Program-made: the position numbers and the translations under genes
Part shown: positions 15,323 through 37,922 of the stretch, in pieces
Layout of the letters: each line of letters starts with the position of its first letter
How positions within the stretch are numbered: the stretch's first letter is position 1
Notes under the pieces: model-generated
Seen by the model: the letters and a program-made list of their open reading frames with translations, nothing else
Database searches by the model: none
Told to the model about the DNA's origin: nothing
NCBI GenBank assembly: GCA_963931035.1
Contig: OZ006979.1
Span: 1,960,238-2,024,237, forward strand
Origin: an uncultured Atopobiaceae bacterium
Lineage (GTDB): Bacteria > Actinomycetota > Coriobacteriia > Coriobacteriales > Atopobiaceae
Length of the DNA stretch: 64,000 nucleotides
Direction: 5' to 3'

Positions 15323-18094
15323 ATGGCCGCTGGAACCGCCGTCAAGGCACCCGCCGAGTACCGCTTCACCGTCAACGGCGAGGAGCAGGTCGTCGCTACC
15401 GACAAGCCGCTCCTTCGCTACCTGCGCGACGAGCTTCATCTCACCTCCGTCAAGGACGGCTGCTCCGAGGGCGCGTGCGGCACCTGCACCGTGCTCGTGG
15501 ACGACCGCGCCACCAAGGCGTGCGTCCTCACCACGCGCCTAGCCGCAGGCCGCGACATCGTGACCGTGGAGGGCCTGCCCCACGAGGAGCAGGAGGCCTT
15601 CGTCTACGCCTTCGGTGCCGTGGGTGCCGTCCAGTGCGGATTTTGCATCCCCGGCATGGTCATGGCGGGCGCAGCCCTCATCCACAAGGTGCCCGACCCC
15701 ACCGAGGATCAGGTCAAAGTGGCCATCCGCGGCAACGTCTGCCGCTGCACCGGCTACAAGAAGATCATCGAGGGCATCCTGCTCGCCGCCGCCATCCTGC
15801 GGGGCGAGAAGAGCATCGACCCCGAGCTCGAGCGCGGCGACGACTACGGCGTGGGCAAGCGCGCCTTCCGCGTTGACGTGCGCCGCAAGGTCCTGGGCTT
15901 TGGCAAGTACCCCGATGACATCGACGAGCGCGACTTCCCGGACCTCACCTACGCCAGCGCCGTGCGCTCCAAGTACCCGCGCGCCCGCGTGGTCAAGATC
16001 GACGCCGAGAAGGCCCGCGCCATGCCGGGCGTCCTCGCCGTGCTCACGGCCGCCGACGTGCCCGTGAACGCCGTCGGCCACCTGCTCTACGACTGGGACG
16101 TCATGACGGCCGAGGGCGACATCACCCACTGCGTGGGCGACGCGATTGCCCTGGTGGTGGCTGAGGACGCCGCCACGCTGGAGAAGGCCAAGAAGGCCGT
16201 CAAGGTGGAGTACGAGGTCCTCGAGCCCGTCCGCTCCATCGAGGAGGCCCGCGCCGAGGGTGCGCCCGTGCTCCACAAGCCCTACCTCGCCTTTGGCACC
16301 TGGGTCACGCCCGAGAACAACATCTGCCAGCAGCGCCACGTGGTCCGCGGCGACGCTGCCGCCGCGCTCGCGGGAGCTGCGCACAAGGTGACGCGCACCT
16401 TCAAGACGCCGTTCACCGAGCACGCCTTCCTCGAGCCCGAGTGCGCCGTCGCCTTCCCGTACAAGGGCGGCGTCAAGGTGTGCTCGTCCGACCAGGGCGC
16501 CTACGACTCCCGCAAGGAGATCGCCCACATGCTGGGCTGGGACGCCACGCCCGAGAAGGTGGTCGTGGAGACCATGCTCGTGGGCGGCGGCTTTGGCGGC
16601 AAGGAGGACGTCTCCGTGCAGCACCTGGCCGCGCTCGCCGCGCTCGCGGTGGACCGTCCCGTCAAGGTGCGCCTCACGCGCCAGGAGTCCATCAACTTCC
16701 ACCCCAAGCGCCACTACATGGAGGGCACGTTCACCCTCGGCTGCGACGAGGACGGTACTTTCGTGGGCCTGGACTGCGAGATCAACTTCGACACCGGCGC
16801 CTACGCGTCGCTCTGCGGCCCGGTCCTGGAGCGCGCCTGCACGCACTCCGTGGGTCCCTACTGTTACCAGAACACGGACATCCGCGGCTTTGGCTGGTAC
16901 ACCAACAACCCGCCCGCCGGCGCGTTCCGCGGCTTCGGTGTCTGCCAGAGCGAGTTTGCGCTGGAGAGCCTCATCGACCTTCTCGCCGACGAGGTGGGCA
17001 TCTCCCCGTGGGAGATCCGGTACAGGAACGCCATCGAGCCGGGCAAGGTCCTGCCCAATGGCCAGATTGCCGACCGCTCCACTGCCCTCAAGGAGACCCT
17101 GCTCGCGGTGCGCGATGTCTACGAGGCGCACCCCGGCCACGCCGGCCTCGCCTGTGCGATGAAGAACGCGGGCGTGGGCGTGGGCCTGCCCGACGCCGGC
17201 CGCTGCAAGATCCGTGTGGAGGACGGCCGCGCCGTGGTCTACTCCGCCACCTCCGACATCGGCCAGGGCTGCAACACCGTCTTCCTGCAGGACGTTGCCG
17301 AGGCCACCGGACTTCCGCTTGCAAACATCGTGAACGGCGAGTGCTCCACCGAGAACGCGCCCGACTCCGGCACCACCTCCGGGTCGCGCCAGACCCTCAT
17401 CACCGGCGAGGCCGTGCGCGGCGCGGCGTTCCTGCTGCGCGACGCCATGCTCGCGGTGGAGGAGGGCACCGAGACCGGCACGGAGCCCGTGGTCGCCCAC
17501 GGTGACGGCTTTGTGGTTGAGTACGCCGACGGCACGCCCTACGTGGGCCCGGGCGCCGGCTACCACGCGCAGGACCCGGTGGCCGCGCTCGCCAAGCTCG
17601 AGGGCCGCGAGTTCTCCTACGAGTATCTCGAGAAGACCGACAAGCTCGGCGCGGACGTGCCCAACCCCAAGAGCCACGTGGCCTACGGCTATGCCACGCA
17701 CGTGGTGATCCTGGACGATGACGGCCGCGTGACCGAGGTCCACGCTGCGCACGACTCCGGGCGCGTGGTGAACCCGATTGCCATCCAGGGCCAGATCGAG
17801 GGCGGTGTGCTCATGGGCATGGGCTACGCGCTGACCGAGCGCTTTGACCTCGAGGACTGCGCGCCGCAGGTGAAGTTCGGCACGCTGGGCCTCTTCAGGG
17901 CGACGGACATTCCGGACATCCACGCGATCTACGTCGAGAAGGACGAGCTTTTGGACGTGGCGTACGGCGGCAAGGGCATCGGCGAGATCGCCACGATCCC
18001 GACGGCACCCGCGGTGCAGAACGCCTACCGTGCGCTCACCGGCGAGCTGCAGTGCGAACTGCCGCTGCGCCACTCGTACTACGCGCGCGACTAG
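15323..18094 (+). CDS. xdhD: Xanthine dehydrogenase-family molybdenum hydroxylase with fused N-terminal 2Fe-2S domain (XdhD-like; candidate selenium-dependent purine/urate hydroxylase)
   Basis: N-terminal 2Fe-2S ferredoxin plus [2Fe-2S]-binding domain (CSEGACGTCTV, QCGFCIPG, CRCTGY) followed by an aldehyde-oxidase/xanthine-DH molybdopterin-binding domain (GGGFGGKE). GGGGAGGAGA RBS. No FAD domain, as in E. coli XdhD. Confidence 0.8.
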   Translation: MAAGTAVKAPAEYRFTVNGEEQVVATDKPLLRYLRDELHLTSVKDGCSEGACGTCTVLVDDRATKACVLTTRLAAGRDIVTVEGLPHEEQEAFVYAFGAVGAVQCGFCIPGMVMAGAALIHKVPDPTEDQVKVAIRGNVCRCTGYKKIIEGILLAAAILRGEKSIDPELERGDDYGVGKRAFRVDVRRKVLGFGKYPDDIDERDFPDLTYASAVRSKYPRARVVKIDAEKARAMPGVLAVLTAADVPVNAVGHLLYDWDVMTAEGDITHCVGDAIALVVAEDAATLEKAKKAVKVEYEVLEPVRSIEEARAEGAPVLHKPYLAFGTWVTPENNICQQRHVVRGDAAAALAGAAHKVTRTFKTPFTEHAFLEPECAVAFPYKGGVKVCSSDQGAYDSRKEIAHMLGWDATPEKVVVETMLVGGGFGGKEDVSVQHLAALAALAVDRPVKVRLTRQESINFHPKRHYMEGTFTLGCDEDGTFVGLDCEINFDTGAYASLCGPVLERACTHSVGPYCYQNTDIRGFGWYTNNPPAGAFRGFGVCQSEFALESLIDLLADEVGISPWEIRYRNAIEPGKVLPNGQIADRSTALKETLLAVRDVYEAHPGHAGLACAMKNAGVGVGLPDAGRCKIRVEDGRAVVYSATSDIGQGCNTVFLQDVAEATGLPLANIVNGECSTENAPDSGTTSGSRQTLITGEAVRGAAFLLRDAMLAVEEGTETGTEPVVAHGDGFVVEYADGTPYVGPGAGYHAQDPVAALAKLEGREFSYEYLEKTDKLGADVPNPKSHVAYGYATHVVILDDDGRVTEVHAAHDSGRVVNPIAIQGQIEGGVLMGMGYALTERFDLEDCAPQVKFGTLGLFRATDIPDIHAIYVEKDELLDVAYGGKGIGEIATIPTAPAVQNAYRALTGELQCELPLRHSYYARD

Positions 18095-18185
18095 GGGCCG
18101 CGCCGCCCGTGCGCCCGCGGAGGGCGCCCGACCTGACATACCCCCGCGACAAGTAGCTCCGCTTCGTCGCACATCCCTTGCTTGG

Positions 18186-18226
18186 GGCCCGCCGGTTTGC
18201 CATGCCCGGCGGGCCCTCGTTTTGTG
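18186..18226. terminator. Rho-independent terminator of xdh (11-bp GC stem gggcccgccgg/ccggcgggccc followed by tcgttttgtg)
   Basis: Read directly. Confidence 0.6.
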
Positions 18227-18235
18227 CGAGCTGCC

Positions 18236-18709
18236 TCAACCTGCGAAGTCGAACGCTGCGGTCGCGAAGTTGACCGACTCCTCGTTTCGTGCGGCTACTT
18301 GCTGGTACAACTTGAAGTCAGCAGTGATGACGGGGATACCCTCCTCAGCGAGCTCCACGTAAGATGCGTCGGTGAATCCCAGCCACATGAAGGGCTGTGC
18401 TTCAACTACCTTGACGGCGGGGACGTGCTTCTCGTTGAGCGCCTCTCCAGACTCGATGAGCTCCCTCAGTATCTGATAGCAGCGCGTGCGGGAACCCTTG
18501 TCCGAGTCCAGGAGATTGGTCGTCTCCGCGAGACATCCTGGTGTGACGACAATTTCGTCATAGCTTGCAAGAAGCCTGCAGAGCACGTCGTAGGAGCCAG
18601 CATCGTAGGCGGCAAGACGCTTGTGACGGGCTATTGTCGAGCGGTCTGCGAGTCCAACAAGAAAGAGCAGGAATACGTTGGTGTCGAGCGCAACTTTACG
18701 CCGGCTCAT
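18236..18709 (-). CDS. PIN-domain toxin (VapC-like ribonuclease)
   Basis: N-terminal VALDTNVFLLFL has the first PIN acidic residue. About 157 aa. It overlaps the upstream small gene by 14 bp. Confidence 0.65.
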   Translation of the reverse strand: MSRRKVALDTNVFLLFLVGLADRSTIARHKRLAAYDAGSYDVLCRLLASYDEIVVTPGCLAETTNLLDSDKGSRTRCYQILRELIESGEALNEKHVPAVKVVEAQPFMWLGFTDASYVELAEEGIPVITADFKLYQQVAARNEESVNFATAAFDFAG

Positions 18710-18977
18710 GGTAGGGCTCCATCCTCTTGAGCTCGAGCGTAGCTCTGTCGAGGATGAGCGTCTTATAGGTGCGCAGTGACTTTGGGCTTGTAGTGAGTCC
18801 TGCAAGGGCCGTTGCCGGAAGGTCGCTTCCGAGGACGTAACCAACAACGACGCGCCAGCTGGTTTCGTCCTCGCTCAACTCGATGCCCTCGAGAGCTGCG
18901 TACCTGGCCTCCGGGATGAGCTCCACGAGAATCTCAACCGCTCTCTTTGCTGCTGCCTGCGCCGACGAGACGTCCAT
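18696..18977 (-). CDS. Putative antitoxin partner of the PIN toxin (unclassified family)
   Basis: Small ORF immediately upstream of the PIN gene and overlapping it in the classic TA arrangement. Palindromic operator-like sequences lie upstream (18990-19100). Confidence 0.4.
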   Translation of the reverse strand: MDVSSAQAAAKRAVEILVELIPEARYAALEGIELSEDETSWRVVVGYVLGSDLPATALAGLTTSPKSLRTYKTLILDRATLELKRMEPYHEPA

Positions 18978-19596
18978 GACGAGTCCTCCAACCATGTCGT
19001 TCCTTTCTCTTCAAGTGTAGCGCGCTCGCGTTCAAGCTCTTGAGGTAGTTCCTCATGAAGCCTCCGTGCCTCCATTGAGGGGTAAGACCCTAGCACGGAG
19101 GCGGTAGGCCTTGTCTTGCAGTTGTCTTCCACGTAGCTGCGTTCCCAGCTCAAGACAGTTGAGAAGGACATATGATTCGAATCTCTATCGACAGACGGTC
19201 GGGTTTCGTGTGTCACCGGTAGATAAGTTGCCTTGGGTGCAAATCGTTGCGTCGCGCGTCCGCACAATGGGTGTCGGGGACAGCGAACGGCATAGTCGCC
19301 GTCAAAACGGCTTGCTGGAAGAAGCGCTTGTGGACAGCGAGGGCCAGGCGTTCGCGACGCTCGCGACTTTACCGCCAAATCTTTACCGCCAGTGGCGGTA
19401 AAACGCCTATCGGCGCGGAGGCCAAGATTATTCTGCTGAGAATTATTCTGCGGAGAATAATCATGCGGCCGAGAAGGGCGCGGCGCTTCAAGCGTAGCCC
19501 GACAATCAACGCTCCCGTCACGCTACGGAAACACGGGTAGGGCAAAGTTACCCTTTGTGTAGCTGAAACTGCCCGCGCCCCGTCGAGAGGCCCTCC

Positions 19597-21030
19597 ATGT
19601 TTGACTTCCTCATGTCCGCCATCACCGCCCTGAACGACAACGTGCTGTGGGGCGTCCCCATGGTCGTGCTGATGCTGGGAACCGGCGTGTTCCTGCTCTT
19701 TGTCATCAAGGGCGTCGTGTTCACGCGCTTCAATGTGGTCATGCGCTACACCACCAAGACGCTCTTCCAGCGCGCCGATCCGTCGGAGGCGGGGGAGGGC
19801 ACCATCTCGCCCTTCCAGGCGGTGTGCACCGCGCTCGCGGCGACGCTCGGTACCGGCAACATCGTGGGCGTGGCGCTCGCGGTGGCCACGGGCGGCCCGG
19901 GATCGATCTTCTGGCTGTGGCTCTCCGCGCTGGCCGGCATGGTCATCAAGTTCTGCGAGGTCACGCTCTCGGTGGCCTACCGCACGCGCAACGAGCGCGG
20001 CGAGATCGTGGGCGGCCCCATGTACTACATCTCCCGCGGGCTGGGCAAGACCTGGCTCGCCATGCTGTTCGCCGCCTTCGGCTTCCTCGCGTCCTTCGGC
20101 ATCGGCGCGAGCGTGCAGGCCAACTCGCTCGCCGGCAGCGTGAACGCCACCTTTGGGGTGCCGCTGCCCGTCATCGGCGCCGTCGTGGCGCTGCTCGCGG
20201 GTCTCGTCCTCATCGGCGGCATCACCCGCATCGCTCAGATTACCGAGAAGCTCGTGCCGTTTGCCGCCATCTTCTACCTCGTCGGCGCCGCGGCGGTGCT
20301 CGTCGTCAACGCCGCCGAGATCCCCGCGGCGATCGCCCAGATCTTCCGCGACGCCTTCACTGGCACCGCAGCCACGGGCGGCTTTTTGGGCGCCACGGTC
20401 ATGTACGCGTGCCGCGTGGGCATGTCGCGCGGCGTGTTCACGCACGAGGCGGGCATGGGCTCGGCGCCCATCGCGCACGCCTCCGCCGACACCGACCACC
20501 CCGCCCGCCAGGGCCTGTGGGGCACCTTCGAGGTGTTCTTCGACACCATCGTCATGTGCACGATCACGGGCCTTGTGATCATCACCTCGGGGCTGTGGCA
20601 CGCCGACCCCATGATGTCCGAGGGCGCCATGAGCTCGGAGGCCTTCGGGCAGAGCATCCCCTTTGGCCAGTACATCGTGACCGTGGGCCTCATGCTCTTC
20701 GCGTTTGCCACGCTGATTGCGTGGTACTACTACGGCGAGAAGTGCGTCGAGTACCTCTTCCGCAAGAGCCGCGCCCAGCGCGTGGCGGTGCGCGTCTACC
20801 AGGTTGCCTATGTGGCCATGGTGTTCGCGGGCTGCGTGACCAACCTCGACGTGGTGTGGGAGTTCGCCGACTGCTTCAACGGCCTCATGGCGATCCCCAA
20901 CCTCATCGCGCTGATCGCGCTCTCGCCCGTGATCCGCCGGCTTGCCGCGGACTTCTTCCGCGACCCCGACCGCCGCCGCCCGCGCGACACTGACTACAGC
21001 GGGATGCTGGTGTTTAGGGACAAGCGCTAG
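19597..21030 (+). CDS. Alanine/glycine:cation symporter (AGCS) family transporter
   Basis: GVPMVVLMLGTGVFL, ATLGTGNIVGVALA and GGPGSIFWLWLSALAGM are hallmark AGCS motifs. Confidence 0.85.
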   Translation: MFDFLMSAITALNDNVLWGVPMVVLMLGTGVFLLFVIKGVVFTRFNVVMRYTTKTLFQRADPSEAGEGTISPFQAVCTALAATLGTGNIVGVALAVATGGPGSIFWLWLSALAGMVIKFCEVTLSVAYRTRNERGEIVGGPMYYISRGLGKTWLAMLFAAFGFLASFGIGASVQANSLAGSVNATFGVPLPVIGAVVALLAGLVLIGGITRIAQITEKLVPFAAIFYLVGAAAVLVVNAAEIPAAIAQIFRDAFTGTAATGGFLGATVMYACRVGMSRGVFTHEAGMGSAPIAHASADTDHPARQGLWGTFEVFFDTIVMCTITGLVIITSGLWHADPMMSEGAMSSEAFGQSIPFGQYIVTVGLMLFAFATLIAWYYYGEKCVEYLFRKSRAQRVAVRVYQVAYVAMVFAGCVTNLDVVWEFADCFNGLMAIPNLIALIALSPVIRRLAADFFRDPDRRRPRDTDYSGMLVFRDKR

Positions 21031-21212: not shown

Positions 21213-22055
21213 ATGGGCCTTGATGCCACGGTGCGCTGTCGGTGCTTTGAGGAGGGCAAACTCAAACCTGGCCCCCTTCCGCTGGATGACCTGTATATCG
21301 ACGAGGAGGGATACCTCTCGTCGCACAAGTTGGACGCGGCTCATGCGAGATTGACGTACCGGCAGTTTGACGCTCGGTATGACGATCTCCAGAGGGAGTT
21401 CGAGAAATGGGCGGACTCTTGCTGCGAGCACGAGTGCGGGGAGTACTGCTCTGAGTGGGTAGGCAATATAGCAGGGTGTGCTCAGTTTGAGTCCCTTGTT
21501 GAGGCTGCTGGCGGTGAAGCTGAGTTTCCCTTGCTTGCAAAACTGCTTCCGCACGCGAACGGGGGAACGTATCCGGCAGAGATGGCGGCTGCCACCCTGG
21601 AAGAGCTGGACCGGTTCATCGAGAAGGTCAGTGACGTCGATGAGTGGATCCTATGTGACGCAGAATCTGATACAGAAATCTGGACCTCCACGGAGAAGGC
21701 GTCGTTTCCGTGGATGATGGGTCCGTTCGACGAGGTGAGAATGACCGGCGGCAAGGTCTGCTTCTTACATGCGGGGCGTCCACCGGTGGAGACGACTCAC
21801 TTCAAGCAGGTTCCGCTCGGTAAGTCAAGCGAGAGTGGCTGTCAGCGGATGGAGATCATCTGTCTGGATACGGGTGCGACGACGGAGACCTTTGACTCCA
21901 TCGGGCCGGAGGGGGCTCCGAAGGTCGAGCGCGAGTTCTATGTCACCTCAAAGAAGGCCCCTTTCCTCTACGAAGGTAAGTACGGGACCGCGGAACGCAT
22001 ACGGAACCTACTCGTTGCCTCTCTCGAGACGGGCAACCCGATAAGGTGGTGCTAA
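21213..22055 (+). CDS. Hypothetical protein (Cys-rich N-terminus), first gene of a 4-gene accessory cluster
   Basis: 280-aa ORF with a coding-like composition. GGAGG before the ATG. No recognisable domain. Confidence 0.45.
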   Translation: MGLDATVRCRCFEEGKLKPGPLPLDDLYIDEEGYLSSHKLDAAHARLTYRQFDARYDDLQREFEKWADSCCEHECGEYCSEWVGNIAGCAQFESLVEAAGGEAEFPLLAKLLPHANGGTYPAEMAAATLEELDRFIEKVSDVDEWILCDAESDTEIWTSTEKASFPWMMGPFDEVRMTGGKVCFLHAGRPPVETTHFKQVPLGKSSESGCQRMEIICLDTGATTETFDSIGPEGAPKVEREFYVTSKKAPFLYEGKYGTAERIRNLLVASLETGNPIRWC

Positions 22056-22057
22056 CA

Positions 22058-22921
22058 ATGAGGCGTCACATCGTTCCGGACGAGGCCTCGGTTGAGGTCC
22101 CGCATCTCAGCTACAAAGACAGACACGCGCTGAACCGCCTGACGGCATACGGACGTCCCATACTCGAGGGGAGCTTGCTCCGCTGCGGCTGTTTCCATTG
22201 CGGGAGCTCGTTTGTGGCGAGCAAGATTACCGACTGGATGCCTGAGGAGGACGGCGCGGACACAGCCCTCTGTCCGTACTGCGGGTGCGACGCCGTACTT
22301 TATGACACGAAGGAGTTCCCGCTGTCCACGGCCTTGCTCTCGAGCATGTATATGGAGTGGTTCAAGTCGAAATACCAGGAGCGGGAGACAGTCGCGACGT
22401 ACGCTCCGTCGTTCTCGGGATATGATGACTACCTGAGGCAGGGCATCGCCTTTCGATTGGAGAAAAGCCCTAGGCACGAGCTGGTAGGGGAGGTCGAGCT
22501 CTGGCTGATGGATAACATCAGCGACTGGGATTGGCTCGTGGATAAAGGTTTAGCTGAACTCTATTCTGACGATATGGTTGACGCGGGCTCGCATGCCGAG
22601 GAGGAAGAGGGGCCTAAGGAGGAGCCAGACGAGAAAAACAAGGACGCCGGCGGCCTGTTGAGAATCGTTGCTCATGTCGAGAATGGCGAGTCTGCCGAGT
22701 ACGAGTTCATCGACGAGCGCGGTCATGTGATCTCTTACCCGCTCTGGCATGAGGAGGATCGTTGCCTGCTTCGCGAGCTTCTAGAAAAGCACGGCTCGCG
22801 TCTCATGGGCCTGCTCGTTGACCCCTTTGGCTCAAAAGTGCGGCTCGTTGTTGATCATGGAGAAGGAGCTGCTAATCCAACTATTCCAGCTGCTTGCTGG
22901 AATCAAGCCGCCTATCGATAA
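22058..22921 (+). CDS. Hypothetical cysteine-rich protein (CGCFHCG...CPYCGCD zinc-ribbon-like, CPCC-type motif)
   Basis: Starts 3 nt after the previous stop. Four-cysteine motif plus an acidic low-complexity linker. Confidence 0.45.
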   Translation: MRRHIVPDEASVEVPHLSYKDRHALNRLTAYGRPILEGSLLRCGCFHCGSSFVASKITDWMPEEDGADTALCPYCGCDAVLYDTKEFPLSTALLSSMYMEWFKSKYQERETVATYAPSFSGYDDYLRQGIAFRLEKSPRHELVGEVELWLMDNISDWDWLVDKGLAELYSDDMVDAGSHAEEEEGPKEEPDEKNKDAGGLLRIVAHVENGESAEYEFIDERGHVISYPLWHEEDRCLLRELLEKHGSRLMGLLVDPFGSKVRLVVDHGEGAANPTIPAACWNQAAYR

Positions 22922-22997
22922 CTGCCCTTCAGTCGCTGTGTGGGCGGTAAGATTTGTCTGTGATAGCCCACTAATCCCTTTGACCAAGGAGAGTGTT

Positions 22998-23810
22998 GTG
23001 GCAAATCCTGAAGAGCTCGACAGTCAGGACATTCCGAGCACGAAGCGTTCGGCGGATATGTACGTTGATGCTGTCAACGCGGTTATCGGGCTTGCCGGCA
23101 TGGCCGTACCACTACTCGTCCCGGGCGGAAAGGCCGCTGCCGTTGCAGGTGCTGTTGTGAAGGCAGCCCCGGTAATACAGGGTGTTGCCAACCAACTTCC
23201 CAAAATAGCGCCCGTGGTGGCTCCGGCGGCAAAGAAGGTTGTTGGCGTCGCTGCCGAGAAAGCCCCCGACGCTGTTGCTGCTGGGTTCGGCAAGGTTGCT
23301 GCCGCTGCCAAGGGTGCCGCTGAAGCGGCGGGAGGGGCGGCGGTTGGGGCGAGAAACGCGGTGCAGGGAGCGATAGACGCCAAGGCCCAGGAGAAGGCAC
23401 GCAAGCTTGCTCGCAGGACCCTGCTCGATGGTGCTGGGATTCGTATGTCCTCGGCCTCGTTCATGGAGAACTGGGATGCACAGTCCAAGCTTCAGGAGGG
23501 GAGCACTGGCGAAGGCTATCTCAACTACTGCGGCTGCTATGCGATTATCACCTGTGACGGTGCTGTCCACAAGGATGATTACAGCAAGTATCGGGAAATC
23601 TACGTGGGCAAGTCCACGAACATGGGGGCAAGCATTCACGACGACTTCGTCGGCAAGGGAAACGCGGACGTCTACGCCGACGTAAAGTACAAGCAGCATG
23701 TCTACGTTCTGCTCTATCCATGCTCAGAGGACAAGCTTGACCAGCTGGAGGAGTCGCTTATCACCGCCTTGGACGCGGATGCATCATACAATCGTGAACG
23801 TCTCTCTTGA
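22998..23810 (+). CDS. GIY-YIG nuclease-domain protein with Ala/Gly/Val-rich N-terminal region
   Basis: C-terminal GCYAIIT-(11 aa)-REIYVGKSTNMGASIHDDF...LEESLITALDADASYNRE fits GIY-x10-YVGK...R/H...E...N of GIY-YIG (compare UvrC IYVGKAKDLRKRLSSYF). GTG start after AGGAGAG. Confidence 0.55.
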   Translation: MANPEELDSQDIPSTKRSADMYVDAVNAVIGLAGMAVPLLVPGGKAAAVAGAVVKAAPVIQGVANQLPKIAPVVAPAAKKVVGVAAEKAPDAVAAGFGKVAAAAKGAAEAAGGAAVGARNAVQGAIDAKAQEKARKLARRTLLDGAGIRMSSASFMENWDAQSKLQEGSTGEGYLNYCGCYAIITCDGAVHKDDYSKYREIYVGKSTNMGASIHDDFVGKGNADVYADVKYKQHVYVLLYPCSEDKLDQLEESLITALDADASYNRERLS

Positions 23811-23921
23811 GAATCCCGCATAGCAGCTACTCGCGGGCGCATACGCTGTCCGTCCTTCTTCTGGCCACGGACTTTTCGAGGGATATCCTAGCTATAGAGA
23901 CAAACCAGAATCGGGGACGCC

Positions 23922-25220
23922 ATGTCAGACAGTAGCGAAACAACTCAAGAAATCACCGTCATCAAAGACGAGCACGGCCTGCTTTTTCTCGGCGACCCCA
24001 AGGAGATCAAGACCTGGCTTGACGAGCGCGGTCTTGCCTCTCGCGAGTTCGCTACCAAGGCATTGAGGACCGGTGGCTCTGCCGTGCAAACGGCAGCCAA
24101 GGTGTCCTCGGAGTCCGGTCGCTGGGTGAAGCTCACTAAGGACTCCGCCAAGCTTCTCGAGAAGTATGGCAAGGCGGGCGCCATACAACCCGGTGTGGTG
24201 CAGAAGTCAAATGGACAGATTGTCAAGTGGCTCAGGTTTGAGAATCCGAGCCAGCTCTTCTCTCCTGCTATGGCGACGGGCGTTGCCGGGATGATGACCC
24301 AGATGGCGCTCGAGCAGGCCATCCAGGAGATTACGGACTATCTCAAGAGCATTGACGAGAAGGTCGGAGACCTCCTTCAAGACCAGAAGGACCAGACCGT
24401 GGCCGACCTCATTGGGGTGGTCTTTGAGGTGGACGAGGCTGCGGCAATCAGGGACAAGGCGGGCACATTGAGCGATGCCGCTTGGTCAAAGCTTGCCCCG
24501 TGTGCTCAGACGACGAGCCGGGCGCTCGGATATGCCTTGACCAAGCTTCAGGGCATTTCGGACAAGCTCTCGCGCGCCGAGTCTGTCGATAAGATCGAGC
24601 ACGTGCTGAGCGCTGCAAAGGAAGACGTGCCCGCGTGGCTCGTTATGGTTTCCAGGGCTGTGCAGACGAGGGACAAGCTCTCGGTCATCGAGCTGGAACG
24701 TGCCTACGCCGAGCTTCCCGAGGTGCTCGAGGAGCATCGCTTGGGAATCGTGGAGGCGAGGCGAGAGCGCCTTGGCAAGGTCAAGGCCAGGATTGATGCC
24801 CTTCGCGAGGTGCTCGAACTGTCGGCAGACAGGGTCAGGGAGGAGAAGCTTCTCCATCCCTTTGCCGTGGATGACGTTCTCAGAACTCTTGATTCACTGA
24901 TGGAGCAGACCAGTCAGTTCTCCAAGGGGCTCGATATCGAGATGGACGAGAAAGTCATCGAGCGTGCTCCGGAGTGGCTTGACGTTGCCGGGAAGCTTGC
25001 TGGCGACGTTGCCTCGGGTGCCGCGAACGGCGCGCAGCAGCTTGGCGGTGCTATTGCTGATGGGGCGGGAGCTCTGAGCGAGGCAGCGGGGAAGGGGGCC
25101 GCTGATCTTGGGGCTGCCGTGGCTGACGGAGTTCATGAGCTTGGCAAGGCCATTGGTAGTGTTGATCTCAAGAAGGCTGCGGATTCGCTTCCGCTCAAGC
25201 TTCCATTTGGGAAGCGCTAG
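23922..25220 (+). CDS. Hypothetical coiled-coil protein with C-terminal Ala/Gly-rich repeats
   Basis: 432 aa. The C-terminal GDVASGAANGAQQLGGAIADGAGALSEAAGKGAADLGAAVADG resembles the Ala-rich segment of the GIY-YIG protein. Confidence 0.5.
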   Translation: MSDSSETTQEITVIKDEHGLLFLGDPKEIKTWLDERGLASREFATKALRTGGSAVQTAAKVSSESGRWVKLTKDSAKLLEKYGKAGAIQPGVVQKSNGQIVKWLRFENPSQLFSPAMATGVAGMMTQMALEQAIQEITDYLKSIDEKVGDLLQDQKDQTVADLIGVVFEVDEAAAIRDKAGTLSDAAWSKLAPCAQTTSRALGYALTKLQGISDKLSRAESVDKIEHVLSAAKEDVPAWLVMVSRAVQTRDKLSVIELERAYAELPEVLEEHRLGIVEARRERLGKVKARIDALREVLELSADRVREEKLLHPFAVDDVLRTLDSLMEQTSQFSKGLDIEMDEKVIERAPEWLDVAGKLAGDVASGAANGAQQLGGAIADGAGALSEAAGKGAADLGAAVADGVHELGKAIGSVDLKKAADSLPLKLPFGKR

Positions 25221-25530
25221 ACAGAGTAATCCCAGAGATTGCAAATGACCTTCTCATGAAGACTGGCTGCAGAATCTGGCGCGCTCATAATCTCGCAGTA
25301 TTCCTGTCCGGTAAACAATTGACGTCAGTTCCGGCAAGCGAAAGAAGATGTGAAGGCAGCAATTAATTTGCAAGAACAGTATCTTCGAGCCTATATGGCT
25401 TGAAGATCCGGTCATCGCGTCGCTATCAAAATACGATGATTAGTATGTTCGACGCTGCTCTATTGGTGGAGAGAAAACCGCGTAGGTATAGCGTGCTAAA
25501 CTGCAATCTGGTCACGGTGAAGCTCGATCT

Positions 25531-27288
25531 TTGAATGTGAATCGCATTCGCAAAAGAACTGTTTCTCACTGCGGGCAACTGTTTGATGGACTGATTGAAT
25601 TAGCCTTGTTGTCGCCTGGACCGTCCGGAAGGAGCTTCACCGTGGCCTCTCCTGAGATTAGATTTACAAGCATCTCTACAAACGCTCAACTTGCCGAATA
25701 CTGCGGTGTTTCATGGGATGAGCTGAGAATGCTTGCGTATGCAGATGGAATCAAGCGGTATACGGAGTGGCTTGTTCCAAAAAAGAATGGGGAAGGCTTC
25801 AGGCGTATCTCCTCGCCCATGGCAAACCTGAGAAGAGTGCAACGGGCGATTGCTAAGGGCCTATCGGAATCCTATAGCCCCCTGAAATGCGTTTACGGCT
25901 TTGTTTGTGAGCGCAATGTGGCCATGAATGCTTTGCAGCACGCAAGAAAAAGAACGGTGCTCACCCTCGATCTCAAGGACTTCTTTCCGTCGATTTCAGC
26001 TTCACGTATTCACGGTCTTTTCGTTAAGACAATGGGTTTTCCTCAAGAGGTGGCAAATACGCTAACTAACTTAGTCCGCCACGAAGGGTCTTTGCCCCAG
26101 GGCGCGCCGACTTCTCCTGTAATAAGCAACATGATATGCTTCAAGATGGACCGAGCACTATTAAACTTTGCAGCAAATAACGGTCTTACATACACAAGAT
26201 ATGCCGACGACCTTGTCTTCTCCAGTACGAGTGCGTACTCAGCTCGAAAGATGGTAGATCAGGAGAAGAACGCTGTTTGTGGCATCAATCACTTTATTAC
26301 AGACACGATTGAGGCTAATGGTTTTGAAATTAATGAGCGAAAGGTTCATGTTGCAAACCGCGGGAGTCGTCAGATAGTCAATGGTATAATAGTCAATCAA
26401 AAGTGCAATATAAGGAGAAGTCAATACAGGGAGTTCAGAGCCCTATTCCATAGGTGGTCAAAGGAGGGCTATTCTGCGGCGGCCGCTGCATACTTCCGGA
26501 ACAAGAAAAACCATTGCTACAAGCCAAAGCTATGTGATGGAGACGAGCTGTGCGACGAGAAAACATTCGCGAGGCACATCCGTGGGCGTCTCGACTATTT
26601 CTCAATGGTTGTAGGGGTAAATGGACACCCTACTGAGCCGATGGCAAAGTTGTGGACCCTCTTTCATCAAGTTACGCATGAGCGTGTGCCGTACCTAACC
26701 TTTGAGAAATCGGCAGTTCAGCTTTCGTACGCGTTTGATTCCAGAGAGACGGACGATGTAGTCGGAGCAGATTCAAGCGGAGTGATAATCCAGGACATCT
26801 TGATGACGTGCAGTCATGGTCTGCCCAAAGAATGTATCGATAAGAATGGAGACGCTGTTTCTATTGATATCCGAACGGCGTTTGGCGGGAGTTTTTCTAT
26901 AGAAGCGTCTAGATTTAAGAAATATTCTGGCTTTGACTTTGCGTTTGCGCGGCTTGACGCAGATTACCGCGATTTGGGCATACAGTCGGTTAATCCAAGC
27001 TATATGCCTCAGGCGGGCGAGACAATATACGCCTCGGGATACGCAGGCGGCAATACACCTTCGCACTGCGTACAGGCTTCAGTGCTCCCTAGTCGTTACG
27101 GTAATGGAAGCGTTGTTGTCGATAGGGCGTTCATCAAGGGAATGAGCGGTGGGCCTGTCTTTAACACTCGACACGAGGTAATCGGAATTGTTCTTAAGGG
27201 AAGTGACGAATCGAGTTACTCAAGGGATGGCGAATTTCTTCCTTTCAAATCCATTTCCGATTTTGAGCCTTTTGCTCTACGCAAATGA
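25531..27288 (+). CDS. Retron-type reverse transcriptase fused to a C-terminal trypsin/chymotrypsin-like serine protease domain
   Basis: Retron-RT N-terminal signature YTEWLVPKKNGEGFRRISSPMANLRRVQRAIAKGL. RT motifs LTLDLKDFFPSI, SLPQGAPTSP and YTRYADDLVFS (YADD). VNGIIVN sits at the position of the retron VTG motif. C-terminal GYAGG...KGMSGGPVF is the GDSGGP-type serine protease motif. Alternative TTG/GTG start, so the start is uncertain. Confidence 0.75.
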   Translation: MNVNRIRKRTVSHCGQLFDGLIELALLSPGPSGRSFTVASPEIRFTSISTNAQLAEYCGVSWDELRMLAYADGIKRYTEWLVPKKNGEGFRRISSPMANLRRVQRAIAKGLSESYSPLKCVYGFVCERNVAMNALQHARKRTVLTLDLKDFFPSISASRIHGLFVKTMGFPQEVANTLTNLVRHEGSLPQGAPTSPVISNMICFKMDRALLNFAANNGLTYTRYADDLVFSSTSAYSARKMVDQEKNAVCGINHFITDTIEANGFEINERKVHVANRGSRQIVNGIIVNQKCNIRRSQYREFRALFHRWSKEGYSAAAAAYFRNKKNHCYKPKLCDGDELCDEKTFARHIRGRLDYFSMVVGVNGHPTEPMAKLWTLFHQVTHERVPYLTFEKSAVQLSYAFDSRETDDVVGADSSGVIIQDILMTCSHGLPKECIDKNGDAVSIDIRTAFGGSFSIEASRFKKYSGFDFAFARLDADYRDLGIQSVNPSYMPQAGETIYASGYAGGNTPSHCVQASVLPSRYGNGSVVVDRAFIKGMSGGPVFNTRHEVIGIVLKGSDESSYSRDGEFLPFKSISDFEPFALRK

Positions 27289-27615: not shown

Positions 27616-28644
27616 GTGTGGCACATGGTAAAATCTTCTGCTTGCAAGGAATGGCATCGCATCGGACGGTGCGGCAACATCAGGTGGAAAGGGCAGGTCG
27701 GCACGTTGTCTGCGAATCAGGTACAGAGCAATAGCATCACTGCTGTGGACCTCTTCTCTGGCTGCGGCGGCATGTCCCTCGGCTTCGAGAATGCCGGGTT
27801 TAAGGTGCTAGCTGCATTTGACAACTGGACGCCAGCTGTCGAGGTGTACCGCAAGAATTTCGACCATCCCATTCTTGAGCAGGACCTCTCTGATGTTAAT
27901 GCTTCCGTCCCTCTTGTCCGACAGCTTGCCCCTACAGTCGTTTTCGGCGGGCCGCCTTGTCAGGATTTCTCGACGGCTGGGCATCAGGACGAGAACGGCG
28001 GTCGAGCCATTCTCTCGGTTGCTTTCGCGAAGATCGTTTCCCGAGTAAGGCCGCAGTGGTTCGTGATGGAGAATGTCGCGACCATAAGAAACACGCGCTC
28101 GTTCAAGCGTGCTTGCGATACCTTTCGAGAGGCGGGGTATGGTCTTACCTGCAAGGTGCTTAATGCCGCATATTGTGGGGTGCCGCAAATCCGTAAGCGC
28201 ATGTTCGTTATCGGGGGCATCGGTGAAGAGGATAACTTTCTTGATGATGTGCTCGACAAGGGGCTGAGCGAAAAGCCTCTCACGATCAGAGACTATCTCG
28301 GCGACTCGCTTGGGATCGATCACTACTTTCGCGTGCCGACGAATTACAGCCGGAGAGGCGTGTTCAGCATCGACGAACCGTCTATGACCATCCGCGCGGT
28401 CGACCGTCCTATACCGCCGGGGTATAAGGGCAACCCCAATGACTCCGCTCCCGTGAGCGAGACGCGCATATTAACTCCGAAGGAGCGCAGCTACATCCAG
28501 ACCTTCCCCGAGGAGTTCGAGTTCTTCGGGAGTAAGTCAGACGTGAACACGATGATTGGCAATGCCGTTCCGGTTAACCTGGCCAATTACGTCGCAAGAG
28601 CTCTGATGGGCTACATCTCCAACAAGAATGGTGGTAACGAATGA
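27616..28644 (+). CDS. DNA (cytosine-5)-methyltransferase, first of a tandem pair (LlaJI M1-like)
   Basis: Motif I DLFSGCGGMSLGF, motif IV GGPPCQDFSTAG, ENV motif. The N-terminus is probably shorter than the ORF. Confidence 0.85.
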   Translation: MWHMVKSSACKEWHRIGRCGNIRWKGQVGTLSANQVQSNSITAVDLFSGCGGMSLGFENAGFKVLAAFDNWTPAVEVYRKNFDHPILEQDLSDVNASVPLVRQLAPTVVFGGPPCQDFSTAGHQDENGGRAILSVAFAKIVSRVRPQWFVMENVATIRNTRSFKRACDTFREAGYGLTCKVLNAAYCGVPQIRKRMFVIGGIGEEDNFLDDVLDKGLSEKPLTIRDYLGDSLGIDHYFRVPTNYSRRGVFSIDEPSMTIRAVDRPIPPGYKGNPNDSAPVSETRILTPKERSYIQTFPEEFEFFGSKSDVNTMIGNAVPVNLANYVARALMGYISNKNGGNE

Positions 28645-29537
28645 GAGCCGTCGACATCTTCTCTGGTTGCGGCGGCATGTCTCTTGGTTTCGAGCAGGCT
28701 GGATTTAAGGTTGTCGCCGCGTTCGACAACTGGAAGCCTGCAGTGGAGATTTACCGCGCGAACTTCACGCATCCCATCTATGAGAAGGATCTCTGTGACG
28801 AGGATTCCGTTGAAACCATCAAGGAACTGAGGCCCGACTTGATCATGGGAGGGCCTCCCTGTCAGGACTACTCGATTGCGGGCAAGCGCACTGAGGGGGC
28901 GCGGGCGAACCTTACCATCCGGTTCGCCGAGATTGTCGCGGGCGTATTGCCTGAATGGGTCGTGTTCGAGAACGTCTACAACATCGAGAGGTTCGGCACG
29001 CTGCCGCGAATGAAGGCGATGCTCAAGGATGCCGGATATGGATTGAGCTCTCGCGTGCTCGATGCGAGCCGCTGTGGGGTGCCCCAGGCAAGAAAGCGCT
29101 TCATTCTGGTCGGCAGGCTCGGCGCCGAGGATGGGTTCTTCGACGAGTCGTTCGTTGAGGGCATGGCGGAAAAGCAGATGACCGTGCGGGATTATCTGGG
29201 TGACAAGCTCGGCACGCAGTACTATTACATGCACCCGCGCAGCTACAACCGGCGTGCCGTCTTCTCCGTTGACGAGCCCTCCGCGACGATACGTGGAATT
29301 AACAGGCCGATACCGGAGAACTACAAGCGACATCATGCCGATGCAGCGGCAATTGAAGACGGCGTTCGTGCTCTCACGACGAAGGAGCGCAGTTACCTGC
29401 AGTCCTTTCCCGAGGAGTTCAAGCTTGAGGGCGCAAAGACAAGCGTCGAGCTTGCCATCGGGAATGCCGTTCCTCCGGCATTGGCGAAATACGTTGCCGA
29501 ACGTGTCTTAAAATATGAGAACGGCGTTGAGCAGTAA
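28641..29537 (+). CDS. DNA (cytosine-5)-methyltransferase, second of the tandem pair (LlaJI M2-like)
   Basis: VDIFSGCGGMSLGF, GGPPCQDYSIAG, ENV. A paralog of the preceding gene with a 4-bp overlap. Confidence 0.85.
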   Translation: MRAVDIFSGCGGMSLGFEQAGFKVVAAFDNWKPAVEIYRANFTHPIYEKDLCDEDSVETIKELRPDLIMGGPPCQDYSIAGKRTEGARANLTIRFAEIVAGVLPEWVVFENVYNIERFGTLPRMKAMLKDAGYGLSSRVLDASRCGVPQARKRFILVGRLGAEDGFFDESFVEGMAEKQMTVRDYLGDKLGTQYYYMHPRSYNRRAVFSVDEPSATIRGINRPIPENYKRHHADAAAIEDGVRALTTKERSYLQSFPEEFKLEGAKTSVELAIGNAVPPALAKYVAERVLKYENGVEQ

Positions 29538-29540
29538 GAG

Positions 29541-31481: not shown

Positions 31482-31485
31482 CGCC

Positions 31486-32961
31486 ATGCGCACGGTCTAC
31501 GTTCGTGAGCGTTCTTTCCACACCCCAGTGAGCCTCGCGCGTACGCTTGGCATCGAGGTGGATGACACCGACCGCTACATCGCCCTTCTGTGCGCGCACG
31601 GCGTGCTTCGGTTGAGGACGGGTGACGAGCCGAAAGAGTACGATCCGCTTGGAGAGAGCGCGCCGCGCGGGACCTATCAGTTCGTCTACGTCGGTCTCGC
31701 CCTGGTGGAGAGCGTCTGCATCGTCGTGTACCCGAAGTACCTGCCCGAGGTCGACCCCCTGTGTCCCGATGACGCCACAAAGGCCGCGATGCGCCAGGTG
31801 TTCAGGGTGCTTCGCAAGAGCGGTGGAAGCTACGCCAGCATTGCCGCCGCGACTGAGGAGGGCATGGGGGCGAACGACCGCCTGGCGCTCATGCTCTCGC
31901 TGCTCGAGATGTATGACGAGTATGGCGTCTACTCTAACTACGTGCGCACCATTGCGGACAACGGGTCGGGCAACATCAGCTGGGAGCGCACCATCGCGGC
32001 GAACCTTCCCTTCGTGCGGGATGGGCGTCCCATCTACTTTGACTACAAGACCGTGGAGACTGACGCCGACGCCTCTGACTTCGTAACGCGACTGCATCGC
32101 GCGGTGCTTACGGAGTGCTCGCGCTTCATGCAGGAGAGCGGGCTGGCTCAGCTGCTGGCGCTCGACGAGGTGTGGCTGAGCGATTCCTCCGTGGCGGACT
32201 TTGGGGACGCCGACTTCGTGGCGTACCGGCTGGAGCGCGAGCGGGCGGTGCAGTTCGTCACGTGGAAGCAGGACGTGATCGACCTGCTCGTGCGCTATGT
32301 GCGCGACGAGGGCATGTCTGCGACGTCGGACGCGCCTCTGTGCCTGGGGACGTCAAGCTTCCATCACGTGTGGGAGACGGCGTGCAAGGTCGCGTTCGGT
32401 GACGTGCTGGCCGTTCGACTGGGGGAGCTGGGGATTGAGCTGGCTCCGCCGTTCGCGGGGATGGCGGAAAAGCGACTTATCGATGTCATCCCGAGACCGG
32501 AGTGGGCTGCATTAGGCGCTGGCGAGGAGCGGGCGTGCGGCGAGGTTGCGACGCTGATCCCGGACATCGTGACGGTGCGAGGTGCCGGCGGGCGCGCCGC
32601 CGCCGGGGGCGGGACGTTCGCCATCCTCGACGCCAAGTACTACATGCCGCTGCTGGGCGAGCGTGTTGGCGGCGTGCCGGGCGTGGAGTCGGTGACCAAG
32701 CAGTTCCTGTATCAGGCCGCGTACCGCGACTTTGTGCTCGCGTACGGGTTCTCCAGGGTGGTGAACGCGTTTCTCGTGCCGTCGTGCGGTGACGCCGTTG
32801 AGCATCTGGGGCGCGTGCGCTTCCCCGGCGTGATCGCTGCCGAGGAGCCGCCGTTCTCGAACGAGGTGGAGCTGTACGCGCTGCCGGCAGAGGCGGTGTT
32901 CGACGCCTATGTGGGCGGACGGGAGTTGGACGCCGCGCGCCTTGCTGAGGTGGTTGGCTAG
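31486..32961 (+). CDS. McrC-like PD-(D/E)xK nuclease subunit (LlaJI R2-like)
   Basis: Follows the McrB-like gene by 4 nt. PD...D/ExK-like IPDIVTV...FAILDAKYY. Confidence 0.6.
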   Translation: MRTVYVRERSFHTPVSLARTLGIEVDDTDRYIALLCAHGVLRLRTGDEPKEYDPLGESAPRGTYQFVYVGLALVESVCIVVYPKYLPEVDPLCPDDATKAAMRQVFRVLRKSGGSYASIAAATEEGMGANDRLALMLSLLEMYDEYGVYSNYVRTIADNGSGNISWERTIAANLPFVRDGRPIYFDYKTVETDADASDFVTRLHRAVLTECSRFMQESGLAQLLALDEVWLSDSSVADFGDADFVAYRLERERAVQFVTWKQDVIDLLVRYVRDEGMSATSDAPLCLGTSSFHHVWETACKVAFGDVLAVRLGELGIELAPPFAGMAEKRLIDVIPRPEWAALGAGEERACGEVATLIPDIVTVRGAGGRAAAGGGTFAILDAKYYMPLLGERVGGVPGVESVTKQFLYQAAYRDFVLAYGFSRVVNAFLVPSCGDAVEHLGRVRFPGVIAAEEPPFSNEVELYALPAEAVFDAYVGGRELDAARLAEVVG

Positions 32962-35900: not shown

Positions 35901-35903
35901 GAT

Positions 35904-37716: not shown

Positions 37717-37922
37717 TTATTTGCAGTGGGTCAATAACCGATTTGAGTCTGGCGGTGAGGGTTAAGTTGCGATTAGCAACCCCCCCGAGAAAGTCGTCTG
37801 GGTAATAGAATGAGCTTGATGCTGTGGCTGACCGAATATGCTCTGTTCGCGCGTGACATATTCTTACATGGGCTTTGCGTTTTTCTGGCGATTGGCTCTT
37901 TTGCACAAAAGGAGGGTGGGGT

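Follow-up and report, generated by a model that had tools for sequence, protein, structure and literature searches.

The Locus and Its Gene Models

The region analysed here comprises four co-oriented open reading frames (ORF1 to ORF4) on the forward strand of the genome of an uncultured Atopobiaceae bacterium, placed between a Na+/alanine symporter gene (19597-21030), which is a core gene, and the reverse-transcriptase (RT) gene of a type XI retron (25531-27288); positions refer to the window, that is, the whole analysed stretch of 64,000 nucleotides of contig OZ006979.1. The four genes fall into two pairs, ORF1 with ORF2 (pair A) and ORF3 with ORF4 (pair B), and the C-terminal domain of ORF3 has the fold of the GIY-YIG nucleases with a serine in the place of their catalytic arginine. 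The guanine-plus-cytosine (GC) content is 67-72% in the flanks, 57-59% in the four-ORF stretch and 47-56% deeper in the island, so that an earlier reading of the DNA made from the sequence alone was right to describe four co-oriented genes on the left margin of a stretch of lower GC. It was equally right that none of the four can be assigned to a known system, as no protein among them matches Pfam, NCBIfam or PADLOC.

The intergenic gaps measure 2 base pairs (bp) between ORF1 and ORF2, 76 bp between ORF2 and ORF3 and 111 bp between ORF3 and ORF4. According to the gene calls on identical public contigs, ORF2 most likely starts at ATG 22058, 2 bp past the stop codon of ORF1. The longest frame of ORF3 opens at 22818, within ORF2, and the real start is GTG 22998, the resulting product of 270 amino acids (aa) agreeing with the gene calls on identical contigs and with the length of nearly all homologues. 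Scans of the window for promoters and terminators gave no signal above shuffle expectation, and neither paralogues of ORF1-ORF4, tRNA genes nor Rfam matches were found in it. In PHROGs, the sole match of the four proteins is the zinc ribbon of ORF2 (phrog_30788); in PADLOC-DB v2, ORF1-ORF3 have no match and ORF4 only a 12-bit chance match, and profile searches with the alignments of the four families against PDB sequences returned only low-complexity, apolipoprotein or designed-helix noise.

A Coupled Pair of Cys-Rich Proteins

The two genes of pair A are translationally coupled and encode Cys-rich proteins. ORF1, which matched no family in domain and profile searches, has its cysteines in the N-terminal region (C9, C11, C70-C71, C75, C79). 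For ORF2, 54 homologues were found, and the motif CGCFHCG...CPYCGCD, already noticed in the sequence-only reading, is confirmed, its four Cys being invariant in 37 homologues as part of the set C43 G44 C45 F46 C48 G49 S50 ... C72 P73 C75 (alignment A4). This zinc ribbon is the only assignable piece of the pair. It also exists as stand-alone genes, namely ~80-aa 'cytoplasmic protein' genes of Bacillus plasmids and a similarly small Blautia phage gene, and further matches lie on Enterococcus, Sinorhizobium and Mycobacterium plasmids; plasmid matches for ORF1 and ORF3 were not found.

In four loci (L034-37), an ORF1 homologue (67-68% identity) stands directly 5' of an ORF2 homologue (39%) with a 2-bp gap; ORF3 and ORF4 are absent there, and the pair adjoins a serpin gene and a type II-A CRISPR-Cas locus. 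One further protein (P0252) is a fusion of an ORF1-like N-terminus (~125 aa; 36% identity to ORF1 over ~110 residues, with the Cys/His pattern retained) to an ORF2 homologue. Because the two genes co-occur without ORF3 and ORF4 and are also found fused, pair A is real and separate. One more ORF1 homologue is present in L038, and a scan of the genome collection with ORF1 gave one 2-kb contig. In a species syntenic with the window (L030-33), an ORF2 homologue lies 5' of the symporter gene and ORF1 is reduced to a 21-codon remnant.

ORF3 and Its GIY-YIG Domain

An AlphaFold2 model of ORF3 built on 59 homologues is confident over approximately residues 140-260 (block-mean predicted local distance difference test, pLDDT, mostly > 90; < 50 for residues 36-119), and this predicted structure has the three-stranded sheet and flanking helices of the GIY-YIG fold. 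Neither ORF3 nor any of its 59 close homologues matches Pfam PF01541 or PF20815. An exhaustive phmmer search with residues 136-270 gave 249 clusters at E <= 0.001, and when ten relatives from the arginine-containing clade described below were scanned with PF01541 (cut-off 22.6 bits), five passed at 25.5-27.5 bits, four scored 18.9-21.1 and one 13.4; the GIY-YIG homology of ORF3 therefore follows by this transitive link only. The sequence-only reading had recognized such a C-terminus from the string GCY...YVGKS...H...E...N, and the fold it proposed stands, with the qualification that the string leaves out the catalytic Arg.

The residues of the domain are G179-C180-Y181, Y202-V203-G204, S212 at the Arg position, H214, D216 at the His position, the motif G221-N222-x-D224-V-Y226-A-D228-x-K230, P241-C242, E251 and S263-Y264-N265. 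The 'GIY' and 'YIG' tyrosines are retained in the close family (Y181 is Tyr in 58 of 59 members; Y202 is Tyr in 46 and Phe in 10). The catalytic Arg, eight residues past the YIG Gly and equivalent to R27 of I-TevI, is absent, position 212 being Ser in 71% of the close family, Ala in 22% and Arg in a single member out of 59, and position 216 is Asp in 98%. The metal-binding Glu (E75 of I-TevI, in the helix that follows strand 3) corresponds to E251, and recovery of the Arg and the Glu had been proposed as a test of the nuclease assignment: the former was not recovered, and the latter is present in ORF3, but its conservation falls to 64% in the close family and to 19% in the wider clade without Arg, compared with 100% in the clade with it. 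The Asn (N90 of I-TevI) is N265 of the S-Y-N motif, Asn in 141 of 141 non-gap representatives and in 93% of the close family. Lys230 is found in 100% of the close family, in which the G-N-x-D-V-Y-A-D-x-K motif, Cys180 and Cys242 are fixed. Position 205 is Lys in 76% of the close family and Gln in the Arg-containing clade; across the 91 representatives lacking Arg it varies (17 K, 16 A, 14 S, 10 R), and there is thus no consistent compensating basic residue.

Judged by these residues, ORF3 appears to be a GIY-YIG homologue with a decayed canonical active site, its domain probably serving as a non-catalytic binding domain or, less likely, as a nuclease with a rewired site. Since its branch lacks both the catalytic Arg and the His, ORF3 is probably not an ordinary DNA-cutting toxin. 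At the N-terminus, the consensus RSAxDYxxAxNAVIxIAExAV is conserved across the 59 homologues and residues 11-30 are modelled with block-mean pLDDT of 73-82; residues 19-41 are a possible membrane-associating element.

Two Clades of the ORF3 Family

The alignment of 151 representatives of the wider family splits cleanly into an Arg clade of 60 and a no-Arg clade of 91, the latter defined by the absence of R212 and including ORF3. In the Arg clade, R212 is found in 60/60 and Q205 in 59/60 (with one gap), and H216 and E251 are conserved; the no-Arg clade keeps H216, like E251, in 19%. Arg-clade proteins have a median length of 190 aa, and 82% of them carry an N-terminal transmembrane (TM)-like hydrophobic segment followed by basic residues, which we read as a membrane anchor. 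The no-Arg clade has a median length of 249 aa and Ala/Gly-rich N-termini. In the branch of ORF3, a hydrophobic helix and an Ala/Gly-rich linker take the place of the TM-like segment, and the catalytic Arg/His(/Glu) set has decayed.

Arg-clade members are typically of ~165-190 aa (P0283, P0297, P0301, P0316, P0359, P0383 and ~50 other representatives) and appear mostly to come from low-GC organisms. Some are fused to a Rep3 replication initiator (P0286), to Sel1 repeats (P0344) or to zinc ribbons and coiled coils (P0384, P0396), and P0320 is a tandem duplication. PADLOC gave only short local matches of these relatives to UzuA and PDC-S14 around YIGQS. A literature search on TM-anchored GIY-YIG defence proteins, SPFH proteins in defence and DUF4230 found no prior description, and the Arg-clade family is apparently undescribed so far.

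ORF4 and the Ala/Gly-Rich Segments

ORF4 consists of a conserved N-terminal region with an SGRWVKLTK motif, a hydrophobic helix, long helices and a variable tail. Its AlphaFold2 model is a helical bundle, confident only over approximately residues 150-340, and the coiled-coil protein of the sequence-only reading is better described in this way. The Ala/Gly-rich repeat tail, which closes with P-x-K-L-P-F-G-K-R, has autocorrelation peaks at lags of 11 and 22 residues that recur in three of four homologues, and the number and length of its repeats vary among homologues (alignment A3).

A-x-x-G-A repeats common to ORF3 and ORF4 had been proposed as a shared interaction or delivery module, a proposal that we abandon. 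Residues 20-135 of ORF3 consist of 33% Ala, 16% Val and 12% Gly with no periodicity, and a Smith-Waterman alignment with the ORF4 tail reaches z = 2, a score attained by 15 of 300 composition-preserving shuffles, so that homology of the two was rejected. The A..GA pattern occurs five times in ORF3 compared with 1.4 expected (6 of 1000 shuffles reach this count) and three times in ORF4 compared with 0.8 (40 of 1000). The segments are alike in composition and are not a common module.

The ORF4 family is broad: the protein search gave 300 hits, and 464 stretches were found in metagenomes. It extends over Eggerthellaceae, Collinsella, Bifidobacterium, Kribbella, Microbispora and others, and it occurs on plasmids of Corynebacterium, Gordonia, Arthrobacter, Streptomyces and Rhodococcus. 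Neither the ORF3 nor the ORF4 family was found among the viral contigs of IMG/VR. A truncated ORF4 homologue adjoins a methylase pair like that of the window on MT837117 (L122), and a phage origin of ORF4 suggested by this entry was rejected, as it is a faecal contig of 7.7 kb, unverified, on which Dcm methylases are encoded.

Genomic Neighbourhoods of ORF3 and ORF4

Outside the window lineage, homologues of ORF3 (62-72% identity) and ORF4 (62-65%) lie next to each other in three or more further lineages of Eggerthellaceae (L022/L041/L042, L023/L024 and L045), with gaps of 30-75 bp and with ORF4 preceding ORF3, the pair order elsewhere being usually opposite to that of the window. Since each gene is also found alone, pair B is real but not obligatory; ORF3 homologues of ~59% identity in Rubneribacter and another species, for instance, have none of the other three genes within 10 kb. 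The contigs with exactly this ORF4 are near-identical to the window, all keep the same gene order and represent a single lineage. Co-location in other genomes, as expected in the sequence-only reading, thus holds for ORF3 with ORF4 in several lineages and for all four genes only on these near-identical contigs.

The partners of ORF4 differ among lineages. In Collinsella, a DUF8426-Mrr_cat nuclease gene lies 34 bp 5' of ORF4, and in L040 a 68%-identical homologue of this nuclease gene lies 134 bp 3' of a 93%-identical ORF4. The ORF4-ORF3 pair of L022/L041/L042 is surrounded by Mrr, an HNH-like gene and GmrSD_N, a DUF262/GmrSD_N gene adjoining ORF4 or the pair in L022/L041, and near that of L023 are GmrSD_N, with one small gene between, and a DUF4011 helicase gene. 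A DUF262 gene adjoins ORF4 on a Corynebacterium plasmid, and ORF4 is accompanied by type I restriction-modification and Ser/Thr kinase genes in Kribbella, by Dcm methylases in L122, and in Rhodococcus by an HNH gene or as part of Tn7-like cargo. The last of these (L131, Rhodococcus qingshengii pLP1, locus 36-6668) is a distant relative of 566 aa and 24% identity, the first cargo gene beside a Tn7-like set of tnsA, HTH-domain, ATP-binding and tniQ genes on a linear plasmid.

The nucleotide homology of the window with L039 and with L040 starts at one shared position, 23908, 14 bp 5' of the ORF4 start. In L039 (1119-2247; 91% nucleotide identity in ORF4), ORF3 and ORF4 are separated by an inserted DUF4230 gene, and in L040 (1-727) an unrelated 209-aa gene stands 5' of ORF4, with the Mrr_cat nuclease gene 3'. 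A common junction with differing neighbours means that ORF4 stays while its partners swap; such exchange is typical of modular accessory systems, and crowding of the island could also cause it. In ~52 Bifidobacterium-type loci (L049-L118), a conserved helical protein of ~145 aa (MARKGGFLKGIVASAATYAVK...; for example L052:4407-4853 and L028:9498-9932) is encoded beside ORF4, in most loci ~80 bp upstream and in B. oedipodis downstream. A relationship of this 145-148-aa partner to the N-terminus of ORF3 was rejected (hhalign probability 0.1). These loci also have a metallophosphoesterase-like gene downstream, and some of them a HEPN/MNT-like pair.

Homologues of ORF3 keep different company. In L128-130 and L018, an operon of XRE, DZR, Band_7_1/GYF_2 and GYF_2 genes ends with the ORF3 homologue, after a gap of 34 bp, and in L017-21 decayed Band_7_1/GYF_2 remnants precede it in a ~1-kb stretch (about 9677-9940 in L017), the SPFH cluster there having been lost and ORF3 kept. 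It directly follows a DUF4230 gene in L126/127 and is near DUF4230 and a MerR-like gene in L011-16; Ser/Thr kinase and DUF6591 genes are often near unpaired homologues. ORF4 of B. oedipodis has DUF4230, Band_7_1-SHOCT and DUF6591 genes within 5 kb and a Ser/Thr kinase gene ~7.5 kb away. The window has an SPFH module of the host as well, 38 kb from ORF3, and it is such a cluster that the ORF3 homologue ends in other Eggerthellaceae. The genes immediately next to ORF3 homologues otherwise vary, including an opposite-strand phosphoenolpyruvate carboxylase gene, NTP_transf_2, genes for 129-133-aa proteins, and GmrSD_N after ORF4-ORF3.

The Island Setting

The setting of the four genes is a genuine defence island (Table 1). 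The genes at 27616-32961 form an LlaJI/McrBC-like restriction-modification cluster, and those at 33384-46207 are probable further defence cargo. The 310 nucleotides of non-coding DNA 5' of the retron RT gene (25221-25530) could house its msr/msd RNA; the predicted fold of this stretch is unexceptional (z = -1.7) and Rfam has no match in it. The DNA 5' of the symporter gene (window 18000-19600; L001 vs L002, locus coordinates 2900-5500) is variable within the species, some contigs having a Fic gene and a 363-aa RelB-like gene and others a 157-aa and a 99-aa gene, and the sister species of L030-33 has in this place the ORF2 homologue and a gene for a BrnT toxin, preceded by a small adjacent gene. 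The symporter gene appears to have an insertion hot spot on either side.

Table 1. Genes, domains and other features of the window discussed in the text, in order of position.
Feature	Position	Strand	Description and basis
ORF1	21213-22055	+	280 aa; first gene of pair A; ORF list
ORF2	22058-22921	+	287 aa (291 aa from alternative GTG 22046); second gene of pair A
ORF2 four-Cys zinc-ribbon domain	22142-22363	+	residues 29-102 of the 287-aa form; phrog_30788, E = 1.9e-11
ORF3 ribosome-binding site	22986-22991	+	AAGGAG, 6 nucleotides ahead of GTG 22998; read from sequence
ORF3	22998-23810	+	270 aa; N-terminal helix/hydrophobic segment, Ala/Gly/Val/Pro/Lys-rich region, C-terminal GIY-YIG-fold domain
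ORF3 residues 19-41	23052-23120	+	predicted helix 19-32 into most hydrophobic stretch VDAVNAVIGLAGMAVPLLV; mean Kyte-Doolittle 1.93
ORF3 residues 36-119	23103-23354	+	low-complexity; pLDDT < 50
ORF3 residues 143-266	23424-23795	+	GIY-YIG-fold domain
ORF3-ORF4 spacer	23811-23921	+	weak terminator-like hairpin 23833-23853; recombination junction near 23908
ORF4	23922-25220	+	432 aa; ORF list, homologue alignment, model
ORF4 residues 115-336	24264-24929	+	long antiparallel helices
ORF4 residues 345-432	24954-25217	+	degenerate 11-residue-repeat tail; 24% Ala, 17% Gly
Type XI retron, RT-trypsin-like protease fusion	25531-27288	+	585-aa ORF, 548 aa by gene callers; PADLOC RT-Protease_XI, 3e-116
Two Dcm-type cytosine methylases	27616-28644, 28641-29537	+	adjacent
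AAA_5 ATPase	29541-31481	+	after Dcm methylases
LlaJI-type restriction gene	31417-32961	+	after AAA_5 ATPase
Peptidase_S8 (subtilase)	33384-35900	-	838 aa; adjoins AAA ATPase
AAA ATPase	35904-37061	-	weak nSTAND3 match; adjoins Peptidase_S8 gene
AAA_15/AAA_21 ATPase	38857-40635	-	adjoins 714-aa protein
714-aa protein without family	40713-42860	-	adjoins AAA_15/AAA_21 ATPase
398-aa uncharacterised protein	43153-44352	-	
YhcG/DUF1016 PDDEXK nuclease	45074-46207		
Zinc-ribbon/TPR protein	61403-62002	-	host SPFH module
228-aa protein	62012-62701	-	weak similarity to L128 DZR membrane protein; host SPFH module
Band_7_1 protein	62705-63985	-	C-terminal double zinc ribbon; host SPFH module

Interpretation and Alternative Explanations

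The reading that we favour, tentatively and at a little short of even confidence, is that the region consists of two independent two-gene modules side by side, in which ORF3 is a GIY-YIG protein with a decayed site and ORF3 and ORF4 form a joint accessory module. Pair B would be built around ORF4, a helical bundle with an amphipathic 11-residue-repeat tail, which travels in defence islands, plasmids and transposon cargo beside lineage-dependent genes of nuclease folds or families (the GIY-YIG-like ORF3, DUF8426-Mrr_cat, DUF262). ORF4 and ORF3 would work jointly on the cytoplasmic side of the membrane, in an accessory module against mobile elements or one tied to envelope functions, and the GIY-YIG domain may bind nucleic acid or a partner protein, or cut weakly or non-canonically, rather than act as a classical toxin nuclease. 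A place at the membrane is suggested by the TM-like segments of the Arg clade, by the ORF3 homologues beside DZR-Band_7_1-GYF_2 and DUF4230 genes, by the DUF4230 insertion in L039 and by the amphipathic tail of ORF4.

Several observations weigh against this reading. ORF3 is solitary in four lineages, and ORF4 is found without the other three genes over most of its range (Collinsella, Bifidobacterium, Kribbella, plasmids). The tie between ORF3 and ORF4 comes from gene context, not from interaction prediction, and the adjacency of ORF4 to nuclease genes could merely reflect the crowding of defence islands; in most Bifidobacterium-type loci the constant neighbour of ORF4 is the ~145-aa helical protein and not a nuclease. 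The hydrophobic N-terminal segment of ORF3 is borderline as a membrane helix by its Kyte-Doolittle value and poorly modelled, and the retention of Y181, Y202, H214, K230, E251 and N265 is compatible with residual or non-canonical cutting. A fold match of ORF4 to JukB was not reproduced by Foldseek.

The strongest competitor, a possible though doubtful one, is that ORF3 and ORF4 are accessories of an actinobacterial gene neighbourhood devoted to membrane organisation or envelope stress (SPFH/Band_7_1, double-zinc-ribbon membrane protein, DUF4230, DUF6591, Ser/Thr kinase and XRE/MerR regulators) without a role against phages or plasmids, their proximity to the retron being accidental. It would account for the ORF3 homologues that close HTH-DZR-Band_7_1/GYF_2-GYF_2 operons, follow or neighbour DUF4230 or stand behind Band_7/GYF remnants, for the surroundings of ORF4 in B. 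oedipodis and for the loss of catalytic residues, which suits a non-nuclease role; there is also a precedent in the Bacillus subtilis SPFH protein YdjI, whose working partners are PspA and the membrane proteins YdjG and YdjH (PMC8581546). However, it is restriction-type genes, not Band_7 or DUF4230, that adjoin in the window, L022-24, L040-45, Collinsella, Kribbella and the plasmids; the Band_7_1 and DZR gene of the window is 38 kb off, ORF4 occurs on plasmids and as Tn7-like cargo, and the pair lies in DNA of ~10% lower GC than the host.

A bolder extension of the joint-module reading, and one we consider unlikely, would make ORF4 a new widespread actinobacterial defence component, bound to the membrane via its tail and pairing with swappable nuclease-fold partners, which it would recruit to incoming DNA unless it permeabilised the membrane itself in the manner of JukB; ORF3, in that case, would serve as a pseudo-nuclease adaptor near the membrane, derived from an active GIY-YIG enzyme with a TM-like anchor.

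It is more improbable again that ORF3 is an active, rewired GIY-YIG effector, with Lys205 or Lys230 in the place of the Arg, and ORF4 its sensor or regulator in a two-gene abortive-infection or restriction-like system. The fold, the kept Y181, Y202, H214, E251 and N265, the invariant K230, the prevalence of K205 in the close family, the exchange of ORF3 for a bona fide Mrr_cat nuclease beside ORF4 and the defence-island setting are all in its favour, but the variability of E251 and of position 205 in the family, the failure of every close-family member to reach Pfam GIY-YIG and the solitary occurrence of ORF3 in conserved loci, which would be intolerable for an unregulated nuclease, weigh against it.

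The sequence-only reading had seen in the four genes a toxin/immunity or novel defence operon, in which a GIY-YIG toxin would be served by its neighbours for immunity or for delivery via the Ala/Gly-rich module. The defence-island setting survives from this proposal, and the co-orientation, the tight gaps, the lower GC common to all four and their presence together on all contigs of the window lineage speak for a single unit. A four-gene module is nevertheless largely refuted by the neighbourhood analysis and now very unlikely: outside that lineage the genes are never all together and occur as pairs and singletons, the Ala/Gly segments are not homologous, the catalytic Arg is absent, Pfam searches detected no secretion or delivery domain and no homologues are found in viral contigs. 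Toxin/immunity in particular is hard to keep, because the conserved loci of ORF3 homologues have no common candidate immunity gene. The least probable reading makes ORF4, alone or together with ORF3, an accessory of the neighbouring retron. ORF4 ends 311 bp 5' of the RT gene on all contigs of the lineage, including L047 (which is not an independent case, being of the same lineage at 91% nucleotide identity), but PADLOC treats RT-Protease type XI as a system of one gene, and among ~100 loci no RT lies near ORF4 in any other lineage.

If the core of the favoured reading holds, it corrects a tempting mis-annotation of the region as a 'GIY-YIG nuclease toxin operon'. The analysis also draws attention to ORF4, an uncharacterised actinobacterial gene that is enriched next to nucleases of the type IV restriction kind. 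Its hosts include the common human-gut Bifidobacterium, Collinsella and Eggerthellaceae, groups whose defence systems have received little study. The repeated association with Band_7/SPFH, zinc-ribbon and DUF4230 genes offers a tangible starting point for work on several domains of unknown function.

Comparison With Known Systems

One known effector with which ORF4 was compared is the pore-forming JukB (PDB 9jht), from the Juk system against jumbo phages. The tail of ORF4 is comparable to the repeats of exchangeable apolipoproteins and perilipins in its 11-residue periodicity and its Ala/Gly/Leu/Lys/Asp composition; matches to the profiles of apolipoprotein A-IV and apolipophorin III are weak and not significant (E 0.015-1), so that it is apolipoprotein-like in repeat type and composition and not by family membership. 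The type IV (modification-dependent) restriction genes Mrr and GmrSD/DUF262 are the most frequent immediate neighbours of ORF4, in either order and with short gaps, and are unlike ORF4 in that it has no nuclease or NTPase motif. Mrr and GmrSD/DUF262 enzymes are known as stand-alone proteins. A conserved RT neighbour, as a retron accessory would have, was not found near ORF4 homologues outside the window lineage. The traits of polymorphic toxins are likewise missing from the ORF3 family: no constant cognate small immunity gene follows its homologues, and Pfam found none of the customary N-terminal domains (LXG, WXG100, Rhs etc.) in ORF3 or its homologues, apart from one isolated weak EspC match in 1 of 59.

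Relative to the GIY-YIG superfamily (I-TevI catalytic domain, UvrC N-terminal domain, T4 EndoII, R.Eco29kI; PF01541), ORF3 has Ser for the Arg, Asp at the His position and a Glu that is not conserved across its clade, and it adds to the scheme the G-N-x-D-V-Y-A-D-x-K motif and two near-invariant Cys (C180, C242). Its Ala/Gly-rich N-terminus, modelled with low confidence, is not a DNA-binding or UvrB-binding module. The single-gene GIY-YIG defence protein PD-T4-3 is called an active restriction endonuclease specific for 5-hydroxymethylcytosine in its structure entry (PDB 9u75); ORF3 differs from it in domain architecture and in lacking the Arg, and has no PADLOC match. The closest true relatives of the ORF3 domain are the Arg-clade proteins (phmmer E 1e-19 to 1e-10), with which it has in common the F-x-E-N-W lead-in and the GCY, YxG, GNxDVYAD, PC and SYN motifs; they strictly keep Gln/Arg/His/Glu and a single N-terminal hydrophobic segment, whereas ORF3 has neither. 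ORF3 thereby represents a new and apparently degenerate branch within a known enzyme superfamily, found here beside an uncharacterised and widespread actinobacterial gene. If the reading proposed above holds, an enzyme family is cleanly split, one branch having a TM-like segment and an intact catalytic set, and the other having lost the catalytic residues and gained a low-complexity N-terminus.

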